A DNA stretch of 64,000 nucleotides from Escherichia coli (GTDB lineage Bacteria; Pseudomonadota; Gammaproteobacteria; Enterobacterales; Enterobacteriaceae), in NCBI RefSeq assembly GCF_046105845.1, contig NZ_CP151004.1, one strand, 5' to 3'. The first letter of the stretch is position 1. Each line of letters starts with the position of its first letter. Below are positions 16,324 through 26,357 of this stretch, piece after piece. The notes beneath the pieces are model-generated. The model searched no databases and was not told where the DNA came from. It saw only the letters and a program-made list of their open reading frames with translations. The position numbers and the translations under genes are program-made.

Positions 16324-17715
16324 ATGACAACCGAAACGCGTTCCCTCTATAGTCAACTTCCGGCTATTGATCGCTTATTGCGCGATAGCTCCTTCCTTTC
16401 TTTGCGTGATACTTATGGCCACACCCGCGTAGTGGAATTGCTGCGTCAGATGCTTGACGAAGCGCGAGAAGTGATTCGTGACAGCCAGACGCTGCCCGCA
16501 TGGTGTGAAAACTGGGCGCAAGAAGTCGATGCCCGACTGACGAAAGAGGCGCAGAGCGCGCTGCGTCCGGTGATCAACCTGACGGGAACCGTGCTGCATA
16601 CCAATCTTGGGCGAGCTTTACAGGCAGAAGCCGCGGTGGAAGCCGTTGCGCAGGCTATGCGTTCGCCAGTGACCCTCGAGTACGATCTGGACGACGCCGG
16701 ACGCGGACATCGCGATCGGGCGCTGGCGCAGCTGCTGTGCCGCATTACGGGAGCGGAAGATGCCTGTATCGTTAATAACAATGCGGCGGCGGTGTTATTG
16801 ATGTTGGCGGCCACTGCCAGCGGGAAAGAGGTGGTGGTATCTCGCGGCGAACTGGTGGAGATTGGCGGCGCGTTTCGTATTCCTGATGTCATGCGTCAGG
16901 CAGGCTGCACCCTACACGAAGTGGGGACCACCAACCGCACGCACGCTAATGATTATCGTCAGGCGGTGAATGAAAATACCGCGCTGTTGATGAAAGTACA
17001 TACCAGTAACTACAGCATTCAGGGATTCACCAAAGCGATAGATGAAGCGGAACTGGTGGCGCTCGGCAAAGAGCTGGATGTTCCCGTAGTGACTGATTTA
17101 GGCAGTGGCTCGCTGGTTGATCTTAGCCAGTACGGTTTGCCGAAAGAGCCAATGCCGCAGGAGTTGATTGCGGCGGGCGTCAGTCTGGTGAGCTTCTCCG
17201 GCGACAAGTTGTTAGGCGGGCCGCAGGCAGGAATTATTGTTGGTAAAAAAGAGATGATCGCCCGCCTGCAAAGCCACCCGCTGAAGCGTGCATTACGCGC
17301 GGATAAAATGACCCTCGCGGCGCTGGAAGCCACGTTGCGTCTTTATTTACACCCTGAGGCGCTGAGTGAAAAATTACCGACCCTGCGTCTGCTTACCCGC
17401 AGCGCAGAGGTCATTCAAATCCAGGCACAACGTTTACAGGCCCCCCTTGCGGCACATTACGGCGCGGAGTTTGCGGTACAGGTTATGCCATGTCTTTCGC
17501 AGATTGGCAGTGGTTCGCTGCCGGTTGATCGCCTGCCGAGTGCGGCATTAACGTTTACACCCCATGATGGACGCGGTAGCCACCTTGAGTCATTAGCCGC
17601 CCGCTGGCGTGAATTGCCAGTGCCGGTGATTGGTCGTATTTATGACGGACGATTGTGGCTGGATTTACGCTGCCTAGAAGATGAGCAACGGTTTTTGGAG
17701 ATGTTGTTGAAATGA
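16324..17715 (+). CDS. selA: L-seryl-tRNA(Sec) selenium transferase
   Basis: 463-aa [24 protein letters not shown]...; stop overlaps selB start (ATGA). Confidence 0.95.
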
Positions 17716-19556
17716 TTATTGCGACTGCCGGACACGTTGACCACGGCAAAACAACCTTATTGCAGGCGATTACTGGCGTAAATGCCGATCGTCTGCCGGA
17801 AGAAAAAAAGCGCGGCATGACTATCGATCTCGGCTATGCCTACTGGCCGCAGCCGGATGGTCGCGTGCCTGGTTTTATCGACGTACCCGGTCATGAAAAG
17901 TTTCTTTCCAACATGCTGGCGGGCGTTGGTGGTATCGATCACGCGCTGTTGGTGGTGGCGTGCGATGACGGCGTGATGGCACAGACCCGTGAGCATCTGG
18001 CGATTTTGCAGCTGACCGGTAATCCGATGCTGACAGTGGCGCTGACCAAAGCCGATCGCGTGGACGAAGCGCGTGTTGATGAGGTTGAACGCCAGGTAAA
18101 GGAGGTGCTGCGGGAATACGGTTTTGCTGAGGCAAAACTGTTTATCACCGCAGCAACCGAAGGTCGGGGAATTGATGCCCTGCGCGAGCATCTGCTTCAG
18201 TTACCAGAACGCGAACACGCCAGCCAACATAGTTTCCGCCTCGCGATCGACCGCGCATTTACCGTAAAAGGTGCCGGGCTGGTCGTCACCGGTACGGCGT
18301 TAAGCGGGGAAGTGAAGGTAGGCGATTCACTATGGCTGACTGGTGTAAATAAACCGATGCGCGTGCGTGCGCTACATGCGCAAAATCAGCCAACAGAAAC
18401 TGCCCATGCCGGGCAGCGTATCGCGCTTAACATCGCGGGTGATGCGGAAAAAGAGCAGATTAACCGTGGCGACTGGCTGCTTGCCGATGCGCCGCCGGAG
18501 CCGTTCACACGGGTGATTGTCGAGCTTCAAACCCATACACCGCTGACCCAGTGGCAGCCGCTGCATATTCACCACGCCGCCAGCCACGTCACGGGACGCG
18601 TTTCGCTGCTGGAAGATAACCTTGCCGAGCTGGTGTTCGACACGCCGCTGTGGCTGGCGGATAACGATCGCTTAGTGCTGCGCGATATCTCGGCCCGCAA
18701 CACGCTGGCGGGGGCGCGTGTGGTGATGCTTAACCCGCCGCGTCGCGGTAAACGTAAGCCGGAATATCTGCAATGGCTGGCGTCACTGGCACGGGCGCAG
18801 AGCGATGCCGATGCGTTATCTGTTCATCTGGAACGCGGCGCGGTTAACCTTGCCGATTTCGCTTGGGCACGGCAGCTCAACGGCGAAGGGATGCGCGAAC
18901 TATTGCAACAGCCTGGCTATATTCAGGCTGGTTATAGCTTGTTGAATGCGCCGGTTGCCGCCCGCTGGCAGCGGAAAATTCTCGACACATTAGCGACTTA
19001 TCATGAGCAACATCGCGATGAACCTGGTCCTGGGCGCGAACGTCTGCGACGTATGGCGTTGCCAATGGAAGATGAAGCGCTGGTACTGTTGCTGATTGAA
19101 AAGATGCGCGAAAGCGGCGACATCCTCAGTCATCACGGCTGGCTGCATCTGCCAGATCACAAAGCGGGATTCAGCGAAGAGCAGCAGGCCATCTGGCAAA
19201 AAGCAGAGCCGCTGTTTGGTGACGAGCCGTGGTGGGTGCGTGATCTGGCAAAAGAGACGGGAACCGACGAGCAGGCAATGCGCCTGACGCTACGCCAGGC
19301 GGCGCAGCAAGGAATTATTACCGCGATCGTTAAAGATCGTTATTACCGTAACGATCGGATTGTCGAGTTTGCCAATATGATCCGCGATCTCGATCAGGAG
19401 TGTGGTTCAACCTGCGCGGCGGATTTCCGCGATCGCTTAGGTGTAGGCCGAAAGCTGGCAATTCAGATTTTGGAATATTTTGACCGCATTGGCTTTACGC
19501 GGCGTCGTGGAAATGATCATTTATTGCGCGACGCATTATTATTTCCGGAAAAATAA
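17712..19556 (+). CDS. selB: selenocysteine-specific elongation factor
   Basis: 614-aa ORF with GTPase motifs [10 protein letters not shown] and DVPGH; C-terminal winged-helix extension. Confidence 0.95.
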
Positions 19557-19641: not shown

Positions 19642-19734
19642 TGGCCTCTTATAAAAAGAGCAATAGCGGTCATGTTTTCAAATAAAAACACTTCGTAAGC
19701 TTCTCGCCCTTTTATACTCGTTCAGGAGTGTGTT

Positions 19735-20884
19735 ATGGCTGCTTCCACCTTTTTTTATTCCTTCCGTTAATGTCATTGGTGCAGATTCTTTTAAAGATGC
19801 GATGAATATGATGGCGGAATATGGTTTTCGCCGTACATTAATTGTGACTGATAGTGTGCTAACAAAATTAGGTATGGAGGGTGATGTACAAAAAGCATTA
19901 CAGGAACGTGATATTTTTAGCGTAATTTATGATGGTACGCATCCTAACCCGACCACAAAAAACGTCGCAGAAGCTCTTAAAATGCTGACGGAAAATAATT
20001 GCGATAGCGTGATTTCTTTAGGTGGTGGTTCCCCGCACGACTGCGCAAAAGGCATTGCGCTGGTGGCAGTTAACGGCGGCGATATTCGCGATTACGAAGG
20101 CGTGGATCGCACGGCGAAACCGCAACTACCGATGATTGCCATCAACACCACGGCGGGTACTGCATCAGAAATGACCCGTTTTTGCATTATCACCGACGAA
20201 GCACGCCACATCAAAATGGCGATTGTGGATAAACACGTCACCCCGCTGCTTTCTGTGAACGATTCGACTCTGATGATGGGTATGCCGAAGCCGTTAACCG
20301 CCGCCACCGGGTTGGACGCGCTGACTCACGCCATCGAAGCGTATATCTCTATTGCGGCAACGCCGATCACTGACGCCTGCGCGCTGAAAGCAATGACCAT
20401 GATCGCGGAAAACTTACCGATAGCGGTTGAAGATGGTCACAACGGCAAAGCGCGTGAAGCAATGTCTTACGCTCAGTTCCTCGCGGGCATGGCGTTTAAT
20501 AATGCTTCACTGGGATACGTACACGCGATGGCGTATCAGTTGGGTGGCTTCTATGACCTGCCGCACGGCGTTTGTAATGCCATTCTGCTGCCGCACGTTC
20601 AGTTATATAACAGCAAAGTTGCCGCCGCACGCTTTGACTGCGCGGCGGCTATGGGCGTGAATGTCACAGGCAAAAACGACGCGGAAGATGCGCAAGCCTG
20701 CATTAAAGCGATTCGCGAACTGGCGAAGACAGTGAATATCCCGGCAGGCCTGCGCGATCTGAATGTGAAAGAAGAAGATTTTGCGGTGCTGACCACCAAT
20801 GCCCTGAAAGATGCGTGTGGATTCACTAACCTTATTCAGGCAACCCATGAAGAAATTGTGGCGATATATCGCGCCGCAATGTAG
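19735..20884 (+). pseudogene. iron-containing alcohol dehydrogenase (YiaY/FucO family) paralog with an apparent +1 frameshift after codon 7
   Basis: ATG at 19735 with RBS aggag reads [15 protein letters not shown]; removing one T from the 7-T run restores [18 protein letters not shown]...; rest of ORF 19730..20884 is a full-length Fe-ADH (GGGSPHD motif, His-rich metal site). Confidence 0.6.
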
Positions 20885-21244: not shown

Positions 21245-22396
21245 ATGGCAGCTTCAACCTTTTTCATTCCCTCTGTGAATGTAATTGGCGCGGATTCATT
21301 AAAAGATGCAATGAATATGATGGCGGATTATGGTCTGCGTCGTACATTAATTGTGACAGGCCGTGTAATGGGCAAGAGCAGCGTGTTGGTGCAACTCCAA
21401 CAAGCCTTGCAGGAACGCAATATCGTAAGCGTTGTTTATAATGGCTCCCAACCGAACCCAACGACGAAAAACGTGGCTGCGGGTTTAAAAATATTGCAGG
21501 AAAATAATTGTGATAGCGTTATCTCCTTAGGCGGCGGTTCTCCACATGACTGTGCAAAAGGGATTGCGCTGGTGGCAACCAACGGCGGCGATATCCGGGA
21601 TTACGAGGGCGTAGACCGCTCGGCGAAACCGCAATTGCCAATGATTGCCATCAACACCACGGCGGGTACGGCGTCTGAAATGACCCGTTTCTGCATCATT
21701 ACCGATGAAACGCGCCACATCAAAATGGCAATTGTGGATAAACACGTCACCCCAATTCTTTCTGTTAATGATTCTACGTTAATGATGGGGATGCCGGAGT
21801 CACTGACCGCCGCCACTGGGATGGACGCATTAACCCATGCCATCGAAGCATATGTCTCTATTGCGGCAACGCCGATCACTGATGCTTGTGCATTGAAAGC
21901 GGTCACCATGATTGCTGAAAACCTGCCGCTGGCAGTAGCAGACGGAAGCAATGCCCAGGCGCGTGAAGCTATGGCTTACGCCCAGTTCCTCGCGGGTATG
22001 GCGTTCAACAACGCATCGCTGGGTTACGTTCATGCAATGGCGCACCAGTTAGGTGGTTTTTACAACCTGCCTCACGGGGTGTGTAATGCTGTTTTGCTGC
22101 CGCATGTTCAGGAGTTCAACAGCAAAGTTGCCGCTGCACGCCTGCGTGACTGCGCGGCGGCAATGGGTGTGAATGTAATGACAATGAACGAAGCTGAAGG
22201 TGCGCAAGCTTGCATTAATGCCATTCGCGAGCTGTCGAAGAAAGTGAATATCCCGGCAGGCCTGCATGAACTGGATGTTAAAGAAGAAGATATTCCGGTA
22301 CTGGCCACCAATGCCCTGAAAGACGCATGTGGGTTTACAAACCCAATTCAGGCAACCCACGAAGAAATTATGGCGATTTATCGCGCCGCAATGTAA
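21245..22396 (+). CDS. yiaY: iron-containing alcohol dehydrogenase (YiaY family), intact, 383 aa
   Basis: [26 protein letters not shown]...; Fe-ADH motifs; length matches what I recall for K-12 YiaY; which of the two copies is the true ortholog is uncertain. Confidence 0.8.
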
Positions 22397-22410
22397 TTAC
22401 CCTTCCTCCA

Positions 22411-22440
22411 GCGGCTGGCGTTTTGTCAGCCGTTTTTTTA
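22411..22440 (+). terminator. terminator hairpin after the second alcohol dehydrogenase gene
   Basis: cggctggcgttttgtcagccg followed by a T run; a related hairpin follows the first copy at about 20893-20915. Confidence 0.5.
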
Positions 22441-22521
22441 ACTATCTCAAAATTCGCGTTTTTTGAGATAGTTTCTCTTTCCTGCTATACACTATCTCAA
22501 TATTACGCTTTTTTGAGATAG
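22441..22521. promoter_or_regulatory. two copies of a 31-bp palindromic element upstream of the fic gene (candidate operators)
   Basis: actatctcaaaattcgcgttttttgagatag (22441-22471) and actatctcaatattacgcttttttgagatag (22491-22521); each is an inverted repeat tatctcaa...ttgagata; 50-bp spacing; ends 5 bp before the fic start. Confidence 0.6.
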
Positions 22522-22525
22522 GCAA

Positions 22526-23821
22526 ATGGTTATCAAATCACCTCCCACGCTGATTCCTTTATCACACTTATCGGGTGAGGAACTCCAGGCCCACCTGCGC
22601 TTTAACCGGGTTACCGATGAAAAAGGACGTTATCTACCTTTTGATGAGTTGCAGTACCGCATCAAAAAAGGAGAAAACGTCGAAGTGGCGTGGACGCTTA
22701 CCCGTCTGGCGCGCAACGCGGCGATCCAACGAATCAATTATTGCAATGAAGCGGGTGAACAGGCCGGATACAACATTACCCCGGTGATTGCAGAAGCGTG
22801 CGAGCTTGTCGACAAACGTGCTACCGCGCTGGCGCTGAAAGATCAGACTGAACGGTTACGCGGGGCCGGAGCCGAGTTAAGCCAGTTACGCCTGGAAGAG
22901 CCGATCACCAGCTCCCAGCTGGAAGGTGCGAATACTACAACGCTGGTGGCGAGAAAAATGCTGGAAACAGGGCGGTCGCCACGCACTGAAGACGAGCATA
23001 TGATTGCAGGAAATGCCCGACTGATGGCGGAAATTCCGCACTTACTCGCAGAACCGCTGACACCTGCGCTTATTCGCCAGTTACATGCCATTGGTATGGG
23101 TGGAATCAATGACGCGAAATATCGTCCGGGAGAATTTCGTGAAACAGATGATGTTGTGATCGCCGACTATGACGGCAATATTGTGCACCAACCGCCCGCT
23201 GCGGCATTGTTGCCGGAACGGCTGGAAAAAGTTTGCCAGTGGTTAAACAGCCATGAAGGGTATATTCACCCGTTAATCCGTGCCTGCATTCTGCATTTTA
23301 TGCTGGCCCATGAACATCCATTTCGCGATGGCAACGGGCGCACCAGTCGGGCACTGTTTTACTGGTATATGCTGAAATCGGGCTACGATGTTTTTAAATA
23401 TATTTCCATCAGCCGTTTTCTTCATGCTGCGCCAGTCAAATATGCTGCCAGCTACCAGTACACTGAATCAGACGGTATGGATCTGACTTATTTCCTTGAG
23501 TATCAGGCGGGTGTCATTAAACGTGCTTTGCAAAACTGGCAGCAGCATATTGATGAAATTATGCAACGAAGTGCAAAACTCGATAGTGTGCTGTTTAGCT
23601 CTGGTGTGCTTAAACGCCTGAATCCGCGCCAGGTAACGCTCCTGAATGTGATGCTCGCCAATCCGGGGAAAGAGTACACAGTTGCTGAAATTAGCGCGAG
23701 CCTGGGCGTCTCTGATAATACGGCTCGAGCTGATTTACGGACAATTGTTAAAGAAGGGTTTGCGCAAGAGAAAAGAATTAATAACCAGCAAGCAGTGTAC
23801 GTCGCACACTACCCGCTGTAG
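22526..23821 (+). CDS. Fic-domain protein (putative AMP-transferase), 431 aa, with N-terminal inhibitory-type motif and C-terminal HTH-like region
   Basis: Canonical Fic motif [12 protein letters not shown] at residues 264-275; S-x-x-x-E-G match (SSQLEG) at residues 129-134; C-terminal about 70 aa resembles a winged helix-turn-helix. Confidence 0.85.
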
Positions 23822-23928: not shown

Positions 23929-25467
23929 ATGACCAATAATCCCCCTTCAGCACAGATTAAGCCCGGCGAGTATGGTTTTCCTCTTAAGTTAAAAGCCCGT
24001 TATGACAACTTTATTGGCGGCGAATGGGTAGCCCCTGCCGATGGTGAGTATTACCAGAACCTGACGCCGGTGACCGGGCAGCTGCTGTGCGAAGTGGCGT
24101 CTTCGGGCAAACGAGACATCGATCTGGCGCTGGATGCTGCGCACAAAGTGAAAGATAAATGGGCGCATACCTCGGTACAGGATCGCGCGGCGATTCTATT
24201 CAAGATTGCCGATCGGATGGAGCAGAACCTCGAACTGTTGGCGACGGCAGAAACCTGGGATAACGGCAAACCCATTCGCGAAACCAGTGCTGCCGACGTG
24301 CCGCTGGCGATTGACCATTTCCGCTATTTTGCCTCGTGTATTCGGGCGCAGGAAGGCGGGATCAGTGAAGTCGATAGCGAAACCGTGGCCTATCATTTCC
24401 ACGAACCATTAGGCGTGGTGGGGCAGATTATCCCGTGGAACTTCCCGCTGCTGATGGCGAGCTGGAAAATGGCCCCTGCGCTGGCGGCGGGCAACTGCGT
24501 GGTGCTGAAACCCGCACGGCTTACCCCGCTTTCTGTACTGCTGCTAATGGAAATCGTCGGTGATTTACTGCCGCCGGGCGTGGTGAACGTGGTCAACGGC
24601 GCGGGTGGGGAAATTGGCGAATATCTGGCGACCTCGAAACGTATCGCCAAAGTGGCGTTTACCGGCTCAACGGAAGTGGGCCAACAAATTATGCAGTACG
24701 CCACGCAAAACATTATTCCGGTAACCCTGGAGCTGGGCGGCAAGTCGCCAAATATCTTCTTTGCTGACGTGATGGATGAAGAAGATGCCTTTTTCGATAA
24801 AGCGCTGGAAGGCTTTGCACTGTTTGCCTTTAACCAGGGCGAAGTTTGCACCTGTCCAAGCCGTGCTTTAGTGCAGGAGTCTATCTACGAACGCTTTATG
24901 GAACGCGCCATCCGCCGTGTCGAAAGCATTCGTAGCGGTAACCCGCTCGACAGCGTGACGCAAATGGGCGCGCAGGTATCTCACGGGCAACTGGAAACCA
25001 TCCTCAATTACATTGATATCGGCAAAAAAGAGGGCGCAGATGTGCTTACCGGCGGGCGGCGCAAGCTGCTGGAAGGCGAACTGAAAGACGGCTACTACCT
25101 CGAACCGACGATTTTGTTTGGTCAGAACAATATGCGCGTGTTCCAGGAGGAGATTTTTGGCCCGGTGCTGGCGGTAACCACCTTCAAAACGATGGACGAG
25201 GCGCTGGAGCTGGCGAATGACACGCAATATGGCCTGGGCGCGGGCGTCTGGAGCCGCAACGGTAATCTGGCCTATAAGATGGGGCGCGGCATTCAGGCCG
25301 GGCGCGTGTGGACCAACTGTTATCACGCTTACCCGGCACATGCGGCGTTTGGCGGCTACAAACAATCAGGTATCGGACGCGAAACCCATAAGATGATGCT
25401 TGAGCATTACCAGCAAACCAAGTGCCTGCTGGTGAGCTACTCGGATAAACCGTTGGGGCTGTTCTGA
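23929..25467 (+). CDS. aldB: aldehyde dehydrogenase B
   Basis: 512 aa from [17 protein letters not shown] (RBS aggag upstream); aldehyde dehydrogenase family with catalytic Cys region; the 542-aa ORF is a 5-prime extension. Confidence 0.9.
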
Positions 25468-25744: not shown

Positions 25745-25930
25745 GTGAAAAGTGCAGACGTGATCGCCATCCTGAAGCAGCATGGCTGGGAACATATTCG
25801 AACCCGTGGCAGTCATCATCAGTTCCGCCACCCTGTTCATCCGGGTCTGGTGACGGTTCCGCACCCTAAAAAAGATATTAAGCCCGGTACGCTGGCGCAA
25901 ATTGGGCGTCAGGCTGGTTTAACATTTTAA
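25745..25930 (+). CDS. hicA: HicA-family toxin
   Basis: 61-aa basic protein (GTG start) ...LKQHGWEHIRTRGSHHQFRHP...; size and G-S-H-H motif fit HicA; immediately followed by hicB. Confidence 0.75.
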   Translation: MKSADVIAILKQHGWEHIRTRGSHHQFRHPVHPGLVTVPHPKKDIKPGTLAQIGRQAGLTF

Positions 25931-25946: not shown

Positions 25947-26357
25947 ATGTTTTATCCCGCCTATATCCACAGTGATCCTGACGGCAGCGCCAGCGGTTTT
26001 TTCCCTGATGTTCCAGGCTGTTATTTTGCTGGTGATACGCTGGACAACGCTTTCCAGGATGCGCGAAGTGCACTGGTCGCGCACTTCGAAACCTTATGCG
26101 AGATGAATGAAGAGTTGCCGCTTCCAGGCTCTGTGGAAACACATCTGGTCCAGCGTGCGCAGGACTTTATTGGCGGGCAATGGTTGCTGGTGGATATCAA
26201 TATGAATCAATTCGAAGGTCGGGCTGAACGTATCAATATTACGATGCCAAAAAGATTACTGAACAAGATTGATACCTACGTGCGCAATAACCCAGACTAT
26301 GCCAACAGAAGTGCGTTTCTGGCGGAAGCTGCCCGGCGTGTATTGCCGGGCGTTTAA
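25947..26357 (+). CDS. hicB: HicB-family antitoxin with C-terminal ribbon-helix-helix-like region
   Basis: 136 aa; N-terminal HicB-like fold; C-terminal RINITMPKRLLNKIDTYV...RSAFLAEAARR resembles an RHH DNA-binding domain; 16-bp gap after hicA. Confidence 0.75.
   Translation: MFYPAYIHSDPDGSASGFFPDVPGCYFAGDTLDNAFQDARSALVAHFETLCEMNEELPLPGSVETHLVQRAQDFIGGQWLLVDINMNQFEGRAERINITMPKRLLNKIDTYVRNNPDYANRSAFLAEAARRVLPGV

Follow-up and report, generated by a model that had tools for sequence, protein, structure and literature searches.

A probable class II Fic protein with a subfamily-specific N-terminal domain and a conserved pair of promoter palindromes between yiaY and aldB in Escherichia

Introduction

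Fic enzymes that carry both an inhibitory helix of their own and a C-terminal winged helix-turn-helix (wHTH) domain are an established design, of which SoFic, EcSofic, CccR, and CbFic2 are described examples (PMC12249575, PMC9755527, PMC10628234, and bioRxiv 10.64898/2026.07.09.737422). Here we examine a gene for such a protein that lies between a yiaY-type dehydrogenase gene and aldB in a 64,000-nucleotide stretch of Escherichia coli DNA (contig NZ_CP151004.1; hereafter “the window”). An earlier reading made from the letters alone (the sequence-only reading) had described a 431-amino-acid (aa) ORF (open reading frame) on the plus strand at positions 22526 to 23821, which is present exactly as described, and had proposed that it encodes an auto-inhibited AMP-transferase fused to a DNA-binding domain. 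That proposal is upheld by profile, alignment, and fold comparisons, although the architecture itself is not unusual. The same reading missed a pair of palindromes in the promoter region and an N-terminal domain specific to a subfamily of these proteins, which are the most informative features of the locus.

Class II Fic proteins are defined by an N-terminal inhibitory helix that acts in cis (classification of Engel et al., as summarized in PMC9755527 and PMC12249575). They form the largest Fic class, and for most of them neither the trigger nor the target has been established (PMC9755527). The inhibitory glutamate contacts the second arginine of the Fic motif and blocks the position of the ATP γ-phosphate, and its replacement by glycine raises AMPylation. 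In SoFic of Shewanella oneidensis (SO_4266/MloA; PDB 3EQX, 3ZCN, and 3ZEC), a dimerization helix (L28–L50) is followed by the inhibitory helix (Q54–E73). This protein binds the 100-bp region that precedes its start codon and both AMPylates and de-AMPylates EF-Tu, acting as a constitutive de-AMPylase (bioRxiv 10.64898/2026.07.09.737422). As cited in PMC11514479 and PMC12249575, SoFic-type class II proteins are toxic and protect against phage T5. EcSofic, from E. coli H397, is toxic when expressed, and its catalytic histidine, dimerization through its N-terminal helix, and its C-terminal domain are needed (PMC12249575). The CccR dimer of Yersinia pseudotuberculosis (PDB 7XUX) represses its own promoter via widely spaced inverted repeats near the −35 and −10 elements (PMC9755527), and CbFic2 of Coxiella burnetii (PDB 8CIL) is a bifunctional AMPylase and de-AMPylase whose activity is switched by DNA binding via its C-terminal HTH (PMC10628234).

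Results

The window protein is very probably a class II Fic enzyme with a wHTH domain

We consider it very probable that the window protein is a class II Fic plus wHTH enzyme. The relevant features of the gene and its product are as follows.

22526 to 23821, plus strand: Fic family protein gene, 431 aa plus stop codon, ATG start; read from the sequence
22781 to 22858, plus strand: helix of residues 86–111, by position equivalent to the N-terminal dimerization helix L28–L50 of SoFic
22865 to 22927, plus strand: inhibitory helix, residues 114–132 in the model, with SSQLE133G at residues 129–134 (nucleotides 22910–22927); from motif, model, and alignment
23054 to 23368, plus strand: Fic core domain (Pfam PF02661), residues 177–281; Pfam E = 1.4e-19
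23315 to 23350, plus strand: catalytic Fic motif, residues 264–275, matching HxFx(D/E)GNGRxxR
23606 to 23818, plus strand: C-terminal wHTH, residues ~361–431; from the model and family-level profiles
Residues 397–409, plus strand: probable recognition helix, the predicted third helix of the wHTH

The canonical active Fic motif named in the sequence-only reading is confirmed. Together with the PF02661 match and a Foldseek probability of 1.00 to many solved Fic proteins, it places the protein in the Fic/Fido superfamily. Residues H264, F266, D268, G269, N270, G271, R272, and R275 are invariant among 44 homologues. The same is true of S129, Q131, L132, E133, and G134, over homologues with identities as low as 39%. 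Taken by itself, a match to the pattern [ST]xxxE[GN] is weak evidence for an inhibitory motif, since one is also found in TIVKEG at residues 406–411. The assignment of SSQLEG as an intramolecular inhibitory motif is instead carried by its invariance, by its placement in the predicted fold, and by a HMMER alignment wherein E133 falls on the E/G234 position of human FICD chains and on SARIEG of CccR.

An AlphaFold2 (AF2) model of the whole protein (pLDDT 89.3, pTM 0.85) contains a helix of residues 86–111, a short loop, and a helix of residues 114–132 that ends in the motif, which is the layout of SoFic. The first of these is divided in the full-length model (helices 86–98 and 101–111) and becomes one continuous helix when the domain is modeled alone. 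SSQLEG is thus found in cis, N-terminal to the Fic motif and at the end of a helix, the arrangement that characterizes class II. By homology, E133 would occupy the ATP γ-phosphate site.

The C-terminal region has the predicted secondary structure of a winged HTH (helices 367–378, 386–393, and 397–409 and strands 413–417 and 423–427), as had been anticipated from the letters. Pfam HTH matches are weak for the window protein alone (HTH_DeoR, E = 0.0028), and support comes at the level of the family, wherein HTH_DeoR is matched at E ≤ 0.001 by 17 of 44 members. HTH_11 and SoFic-like_C also match at this level, the latter (PF21248) reaching E ≤ 0.001 in only 4 of the 44 and having no match in the window protein. 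Residues N398, T399, and A400 are conserved among homologues. Foldseek returned CbFic2 (8cil) and SoFic (3eqx/3zcn/3zec) as the best full-length matches (TM scores of 0.68 to 0.72, normalized to the target), followed by 4rgl, 7cb8, and CccR (7xux). Relatives found by profile-to-PDB comparison include CbFic2, CccR (7xux), FICD, a Bordetella Fic protein (8uqu), 9vjc, 4rgl, and SoFic, and the profile alignment to the HTH region of CbFic2 (8cil) reaches residue ~436. The PADLOC hidden Markov model (PDLC03963) for SoFic, listed by PADLOC and DefenseFinder as a single-gene anti-phage system, matches residues 96–427 with profile positions 30–351 of 361 (E = 3.1e-44, 149.8 bits), and PHROG family phrog_5978 matches with E = 2.4e-54.

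The locus differs from each described Fic system

SoFic shares with the window protein the order of N-terminal helix, inhibitory helix, Fic core, and wHTH, and is its top full-length fold match. The chain from residue ~90 superposes on SoFic, a Fic plus wHTH protein, with a TM score of 0.68 to 0.72 (normalized to the target) over ~350 columns, and on other Fic–wHTH structures as well. The sequence alignment to SoFic begins at query residues ~90–100, which correspond to chain residues 33–41. The two proteins are, however, only ~18% identical, and the window protein has ~60 additional N-terminal residues that form a conserved domain absent from SoFic. Moreover, the SoFic operator is undefined, whereas two explicit palindromes precede the window gene. 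EF-Tu, the SoFic target, can serve for the window protein only as a lead by analogy.

EcSofic is likewise an E. coli class II Fic protein with a C-terminal domain, but it is a different protein (His194 and Glu70 versus H264 and E133). A 47-aa antitoxin gene, AS1, lies downstream of EcSofic, whereas the window gene is followed by 107 nt to aldB with no credible small ORF. No credible partner or AS1-like antitoxin gene was found near the Fic gene, where the only ORFs overlap the Fic or aldB frames. The class I FicT/FicA systems (VbhT/VbhA-type) also comprise growth-arresting, AMPylating Fic toxins in autoregulated operons, but there the inhibitory helix is supplied in trans by an antitoxin gene, whereas in the window protein it is present in cis and no partner gene exists. 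A two-gene system of the class I FicTA or EcSofic–AS1 type was rejected because of the missing small antitoxin gene and the 107-nt gap to aldB.

CccR is a class II protein with a C-terminal HTH in which SARIEG aligns with SSQLEG. Its DNA site is a single 10-bp inverted repeat with a 26-bp spacer, whereas the window gene has two palindromes with 12-bp spacers, 50 bp apart. In addition, CccR is a type VI secretion system effector that AMPylates FtsZ, lacks the extra N-terminal domain, and is ~18% identical to the window protein. CbFic2 is the best profile-to-PDB match (E = 4.8e-24, covering the Fic core and HTH), but as an effector it is directed at eukaryotes and modifies histone H3, it lacks the N-terminal domain, and it is ~21% identical. 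The Fic core and inhibitory glutamate of human FICD/HYPE also align (E234 with E133), and this glutamate switches FICD between AMPylation and de-AMPylation. Unlike the window protein, FICD is a eukaryotic endoplasmic reticulum protein with TPR repeats and no wHTH that dimerizes through its Fic domain.

Two conserved palindromes overlap the putative Fic promoter

The 129-nt spacer between the yiaY stop codon and the Fic ATG contains the following features.

22410 to 22434, plus strand: intrinsic-terminator-like hairpin and T-run at the end of the yiaY-type gene, from a terminator scan; left edge of the Fic cassette
22442 to 22471, no strand assigned: distal palindrome O1, CTATCTCAA-N12-TTGAGATAG, 30 bp; candidate operator overlapping the putative −35 element
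22463 to 22491, plus strand: putative sigma-70 promoter with −35 TTGAGA (22463–22468), a 17-nt spacer, and extended −10 TGcTATACA (22483–22491); read from the sequence
22492 to 22521, no strand assigned: proximal palindrome O2, CTATCTCAA-N12-TTGAGATAG, 30 bp; candidate operator over −10/+1 and the 5′ untranslated region

O1 and O2 are near-identical and lie 50 bp apart, with O2 ending 4 nt before the ATG. Their arms are perfect over 9 to 13 nt, with ATCTCAA and TTGAGAT as the half-sites on either side of N12. The palindrome CTATCTCAA-N12-TTGAGATAG has two matches in the 64-kb window, both at the Fic promoter, versus none in 100 shuffles. The TTGAGA hexamer lies within the right arm of O1 and TGcTATACA abuts the left arm of O2, with a transcription start predicted near 22498. 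An automatic promoter scan missed this promoter, in which position 6 of the −10 element is A. A TTGAGA-17/18 nt-TATAAC/TATACT arrangement is also present in the Pseudescherichia and Salmonella loci (L003 and L005). Palindromes over −35 and −10/+1 would represent a classical repressor layout by analogy with CccR, for which it was shown experimentally, and the conserved palindromes, which sit at the corresponding place in the promoter, are candidate operators.

To compare upstream regions we used 11 homologous loci retrieved by exact protein look-up, and thus independently of the DNA motif. They comprise E. coli; Pseudescherichia (by a NIT/ANTAR gene); a Salmonella element (AcaB/TrwB-type genes); Photorhabdus (by parE and hicAB); a Klebsiella prophage; Xenorhabdus; Cronobacter; Buttiauxella; Endozoicomonas; and two Pseudomonas islands. 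The pattern YTCAA-N12-TTGAR lies 22 to 32 nt upstream of the ATG in 9 of the 11 loci, with no match in their other 113.6 kb, and about half of the loci also carry a distal copy ~50 bp upstream. A palindrome in the distal position precedes the homologues of E. coli, E. albertii, Pseudescherichia, the Salmonella element, Endozoicomonas, and Pseudomonas (half-site ATTTCAA). Across 14 sites, the TCAA/TTGA cores carry 2 bits per position and the center of the spacer ~0.2 bits. Variant half-sites change in both arms, as in ATTTCAA/TTGAAAT of Pseudomonas, ACCTCAA/TTGAGGT of Cronobacter, and ATCGCAA/TTGCGAT of the Leclercia distal site.

The palindromes are therefore kept in sequence and position upstream of proteins that are 41 to 96% identical and reside in unrelated genomic contexts. 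Because they accompany the gene into unrelated sites in other genera, they are probably autorepression operators, and the pair is the probable DNA target of the HTH. We judge autoregulation through these elements to be likely. The half-site centers are ~21 bp (~70 Å) apart, a spacing that would fit a dimer with well-separated wHTH domains.

An N-terminal domain defines a distinct subfamily

22526 to 22780, plus strand: subfamily-specific N-terminal domain, residues 1–85, with a signature that includes AW..R.AR; from conservation and the model

Within this domain, P7, Y36, R45, W56, and R63 are invariant. The domain is modeled with confidence both in context (pLDDT 83–97) and alone (pLDDT 92.8), and it directly precedes the helix equivalent to the SoFic helix for dimerization and allosteric control. 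No PDB sequence or fold match was found over residues 1 to ~90. When a profile of the domain was compared with 1.84 billion representative proteins, only 253 clusters were recovered. Among the matches listed, all 49 proteins of at least 300 aa have the domain at or near the N terminus, and in 41 of these a strict HxFxxGNGR is preceded by SxxxEG, the rest being variants, frameshifts, or chimeras. Foldseek comparison of the domain with AFDB50 returned almost only “Fic family protein” entries of 420 to 505 aa, from Gammaproteobacteria, cyanobacteria, and Desulfobacter. Because the domain is conserved and found nearly only with Fic proteins, the N-extended Fic–wHTH proteins form a separate, modest-sized subfamily, which these comparisons define by its accessory domain. 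Relative to the known Fic–wHTH design, what is new is this domain, the conserved dual palindromes that travel with the gene, and the probable scar in K-12 discussed below.

Homologues are found on plasmids as well as in a conjugative-type element of Salmonella, a prophage of Klebsiella, and an integrase/excisionase island of Pseudomonas. Truncated and fused variants also exist (P0002, P0075, and P0111). In P0111, an E. coli-like sequence known from one Logan contig, Fic residues 1–167 continue in frame into AldB. Such a fusion implies an internal deletion, which covers the 3′ portion of the Fic gene together with the beginning of aldB. Three distant N-extended members, P0215, P0239, and P0255, have lost the catalytic histidine (KMFVDGNGR, YAFEDGNGR, and APFARGNGR) and the inhibitory glutamate as well (ESALLAG, ESARLSG, and ASAQLSG). 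This joint loss is consistent with a functional coupling of the catalytic and inhibitory sites. In Xenorhabdus khoisanae, a second, shorter Fic-HTH gene (336 aa; locus L011, 7206–8216) is encoded on the opposite strand ~800 bp downstream of the N-extended homologue, such that two different Fic-HTH proteins share one locus.

The Fic gene occupies the yiaY–aldB junction in about 29% of E. coli genomes

21245 to 22396, plus strand: left flank, intact yiaY-type Fe-alcohol/threonine dehydrogenase gene, the second copy of a tandem pair; corresponds to E. coli yiaY as annotated
23929 to 25467, plus strand: right flank, aldB (aldehyde dehydrogenase B), true start at 23929; 95.6% nucleotide identity to K-12 aldB

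The start codon of the Fic gene is well supported by in-frame stops just upstream and by homologues that all begin M-x-I-K-x-P-P. The 107 nt between its stop codon and aldB belong to an aldB upstream region that is common to K-12. In K-12 DH1, aldB follows yiaY directly after a 164-nt gap with no gene, in agreement with the sequence-only reading. The BLAST comparison across E. coli genomes that this reading had proposed (here a megablast of the locus) places the full gene at the junction in 1572 of 5426 complete genomes (~29%), always on the chromosome. Existing annotation in E. coli is “Fic family protein”, as for WP_000985737.1 of strain L1PEag1, from which the window protein differs at 8 of 431 residues (~98% identity). 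It is 96% identical to its cluster representative (P0001), and the cluster, formed at 90% identity, holds 1771 full-length member sequences. E. albertii carries the gene at the same place.

The ratio of nonsynonymous to synonymous substitution rates (dN/dS) is 0.10 versus E. coli and 0.07 versus E. albertii, with no stops, and the gene is under purifying selection. Because the core genes selB (17712–19556; 96.7%) and aldB (95.6%) are only ~96% identical to those of K-12, the window seems to belong to a diverged Escherichia lineage, one that sits at the margin of E. coli proper or outside it. A 15-pair inverted repeat (23786–23818) falls within the final 36 nt of the Fic ORF, and a scan scored it as terminator-like for the minus strand. 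Read on the plus strand, the repeat precedes TAGCTTTTG and might be a weak terminator before aldB.

Empty junctions and orphan palindromes suggest loss of the cassette

A scan for the exact 18-base palindrome in 100,044 species-representative genomes found 46 loci, of which 14 adjoin a Fic homologue and ~10 are Enterobacterales loci with orphan palindromes. The rest are in AT-rich genomes; ~20 of the 46 matches, in AT-rich Firmicutes and other metagenome-assembled genomes with no Fic gene nearby, were treated as chance.

Two Escherichia junctions without the gene are informative. In the yiaY–aldB spacer of Escherichia sp. E1V33 the Fic gene is absent and the distal palindrome is intact (L036, 1635–1664). 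It is followed by AGTTATCTC-TGTAG, running into the sequence that comes after the Fic stop codon in Fic-positive genomes. At the same spot K-12 has only a half-site, AACTATCTC-TGTAA, and the hairpin at 22410 to 22434 is found before the junction in both K-12 and E1V33. Judged from these sequences, the Fic-less Escherichia alleles probably arose by deletion and kept a portion of the operator region, and the K-12 half-site is probably a deletion scar. A different origin of orphans may be that pre-existing palindromes attract the cassette.

In Enterobacter sp. BIGb0383, an orphan pair 50 bp apart lies in the panB–folK spacer (L043, 1515–1594), and more intergenic orphans with no Fic gene nearby are present in L029, L035, L042, and L061. 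Such orphans may mark places where a cassette was lost, act as additional sites of a regulon, or be targets for insertion. Escherichia sp. ESNIH1, which carries a Fic gene at L038, has a second perfect palindrome elsewhere in its genome, inside a 231-aa ORF of unassigned function (L037, 564–593), which is a possible additional binding site. A presence/absence comparison of Buttiauxella loci (L035/L061 versus L057) was uninformative regarding the ends of the cassette, as the downstream flanks differ.

Discussion

A self-contained, cis-inhibited Fic module as the preferred explanation

On balance, and a little less firmly than for autoregulation by itself, we favor the view that the gene is a self-contained, self-repressed, cis-inhibited, toxin-like Fic module. 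In this model, the N-terminal domain (1–85), a dimerization-type helix (86–111), the inhibitory helix with SSQLE133G at its end, the H264-bearing Fic core, and the wHTH would follow one another in a protein that acts as a dimer, which would bind the two palindromic operators through its two wHTH domains. Occupancy of operators over −35 and −10/+1 would repress the gene's own promoter and keep the protein level low. Any residual AMPylation would be held in check by E133, whose counterpart in relatives blocks productive ATP binding and supports de-AMPylation. Upon a trigger, AMPylation of an essential cellular protein would cause growth arrest. By analogy with SoFic as a single-gene defense system, the most likely trigger would be phage infection, and EF-Tu is the sole lead for a target. 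The analysis itself shows the motifs, the fold, the homology, the conservation and position of the palindromes, the presence or absence of the gene across genomes, and the purifying selection, whereas dimerization, DNA binding, repression, catalysis, target, and trigger are inferred. Because of the SoFic analogy and the patchy, mobile-element-associated distribution of the family, abortive-infection-type phage defense or addiction would be the most likely role, with an anti-phage function proposed tentatively.

A broader and rather unlikely extension is that the N-extended Fic–wHTH proteins constitute a module of their own for immunity or addiction, made up of one gene and widely mobile, with the N-terminal domain as a sensor or target selector and a 1.4-kb dual-operator cassette that moves in and out and leaves orphan operators behind. 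The N-terminal domain would then either relieve auto-inhibition, perhaps upon contact with a phage protein, or pick a target other than that of SoFic. The cassette would insert into and be excised from intergenic sites, and what is left at the K-12 yiaY–aldB junction would be an example of such an orphan operator.

Several observations weigh against the self-repressed, toxin-like module and the defense role proposed for it. The Escherichia gene is not in a recognizable defense island, and its presence at the same locus in E. coli and E. albertii looks like long-term vertical retention with losses rather than the rapid turnover of defense genes. Among sequenced phage genomes there is no N-extended full-length homologue, and only the Fic–wHTH part finds matches, at no more than 36% identity. 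The solved Fic–wHTH proteins are only 18 to 21% identical, and the NCBIfam SoFic equivalog (NF046030, “protein adenylyltransferase Fic”) scores 41.9 bits versus a cutoff of 550. Because of this score the protein is not a SoFic orthologue, and for both reasons function is not simply transferable from the solved relatives. The control exerted by oligomerization or DNA binding runs in different directions in SoFic, FICD, and CbFic2 (PMC10628234 for CbFic2), so its direction in the window protein is not predictable. Regarding the operators, orphan palindromes without a Fic gene exist, and the palindromes could form RNA or DNA hairpins (−15 and −10.5 kcal/mol). The enterobacterial recognition helix SDNTARxDL goes with ATCTCAA and the Pseudomonas helix C[SA]YNTAAxVL with ATTTCAA, but co-variation of helix and half-site was rejected since Endozoicomonas combines a Pseudomonas-type helix with ATCTCAA sites. 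Finally, we found no paper on the yiaY–aldB Fic gene or junction, and there is no experimental work on this protein or its N-extended subfamily.

Alternative explanations

The structural potential of the palindromes raises the alternative that they are hairpin elements, serving as insulating terminators or in control of RNA stability or translation, or else small mobile-linked extragenic repeats, while the wHTH binds something else or nothing specific. Indeed, the predicted folding of both palindromes is much stronger than that of shuffles (z = −7.7 and −3.7), a scan flagged the distal one as terminator-like, changes in other genera are symmetrical in both arms, and orphan intergenic copies occur in several genera. 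The stems contain only three G-C pairs, however, and the transcript from the predicted start near 22498 would lack the left arm of O2 and is not significantly structured (z = 0.59). The arms are almost invariant across proteins of 41 to 96% identity while the center of the spacer is free to vary, a pattern that recognition of a specific sequence would produce and a simple stem would not. We disfavor the hairpin explanation, which is unlikely, because the arms are conserved in sequence, the stems are poor in G+C, and the predicted transcript, without the O2 left arm, is not significantly structured. Fixed spacing (N12 within a site and ~50 bp between sites), coincidence with −35-like and −10-like hexamers, and the binding of inverted repeats or own promoter DNA by two solved relatives also speak for operators. 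Unlikely to a similar degree is a protein that serves primarily as a transcription factor for other genes in addition to itself, wherein the Fic domain is a sensory or modulatory (de)AMPylase and not a toxin, as on the regulator side of CccR. In the window both sites sit at the gene's own promoter, and among the 14 Fic-adjoining species-representative loci an extra perfect site is present only in ESNIH1 and Leminorella. Exact palindromes located away from Fic genes in Enterobacterales, such as those at panB–folK of Enterobacter sp. BIGb0383 and the second ESNIH1 site, would fit such a regulator, as would the promoter binding of CccR and SoFic and the constitutive de-AMPylase activity of SoFic, but several orphans (E1V33 and K-12) have the look of remnants left by a cassette that was lost from the same locus. 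Furthermore, the catalytic and inhibitory residues do not vary, purifying selection is strong, and relatives are toxic on overexpression.

Delivery to competitors by a type VI system, with AMPylation of a target such as FtsZ, would make the protein a secreted interbacterial effector like CccR, which is among the sequence and fold matches (7xux) and combines the same Fic–wHTH design with autoregulation. We consider this very unlikely, given that the resemblance to CccR does not extend beyond the Fic region (residues 122–290; ~18% identity), that no secretion-system gene lies beside a homologue in any context examined, and that CccR has no extra N-terminal domain. Even less probable is that the gene is a remnant of an old insertion, decaying or without function, a notion already largely refuted by the selection analysis. 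Although the gene has been lost from ~71% of complete E. coli genomes and truncated or fused variants are known (P0002, P0075, and P0111), the reading frame is intact with all catalytic residues in place, dN/dS is 0.07 to 0.10 versus E. albertii and E. coli, and the 90%-identity cluster consists of 1771 full-length sequences.

Implications for class II Fic proteins

The N-extended subfamily offers a tractable case for the triggers and targets of class II Fic proteins. Since the gene is natural in ~29% of E. coli and cleanly absent from K-12, the native cassette can be moved into an isogenic background. The explicit operator predicted from sequence (ATCTCAA-N12-TTGAGAT, in two copies) permits a direct test of the coupling of DNA binding to AMPylation or de-AMPylation, and a candidate sensor is at hand in the additional N-terminal domain. 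For annotation, the N-extended family is separated from true SoFic orthologues, and a short conserved half-site in the K-12 yiaY–aldB spacer is explained as a probable deletion scar.

Neighboring genes

The window contains two tandem yiaY-type Fe-dependent dehydrogenase genes (19730–20884 and 21245–22396), whereas E. coli has one. Identity is 80.6% between the two copies and 83% between copy 1 and K-12 yiaY. This duplication is present in none of the complete E. coli genomes, where the best matches are ~84%. An additional T within a T-run close behind the ATG (ATGGCTGCTTCCACCTTTTTTTATTC near 19735) apparently shifts the frame of copy 1, which may therefore be a pseudogene or reflect a sequencing error. 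On the other side, a hicA/hicB-type toxin–antitoxin pair (25745–25930 and 25947–26357) lies between aldB and a GH127 glycosidase gene, a place where E. coli L1PEag1 has no such pair. The Photorhabdus Fic homologue also has hicAB, in that case immediately upstream.

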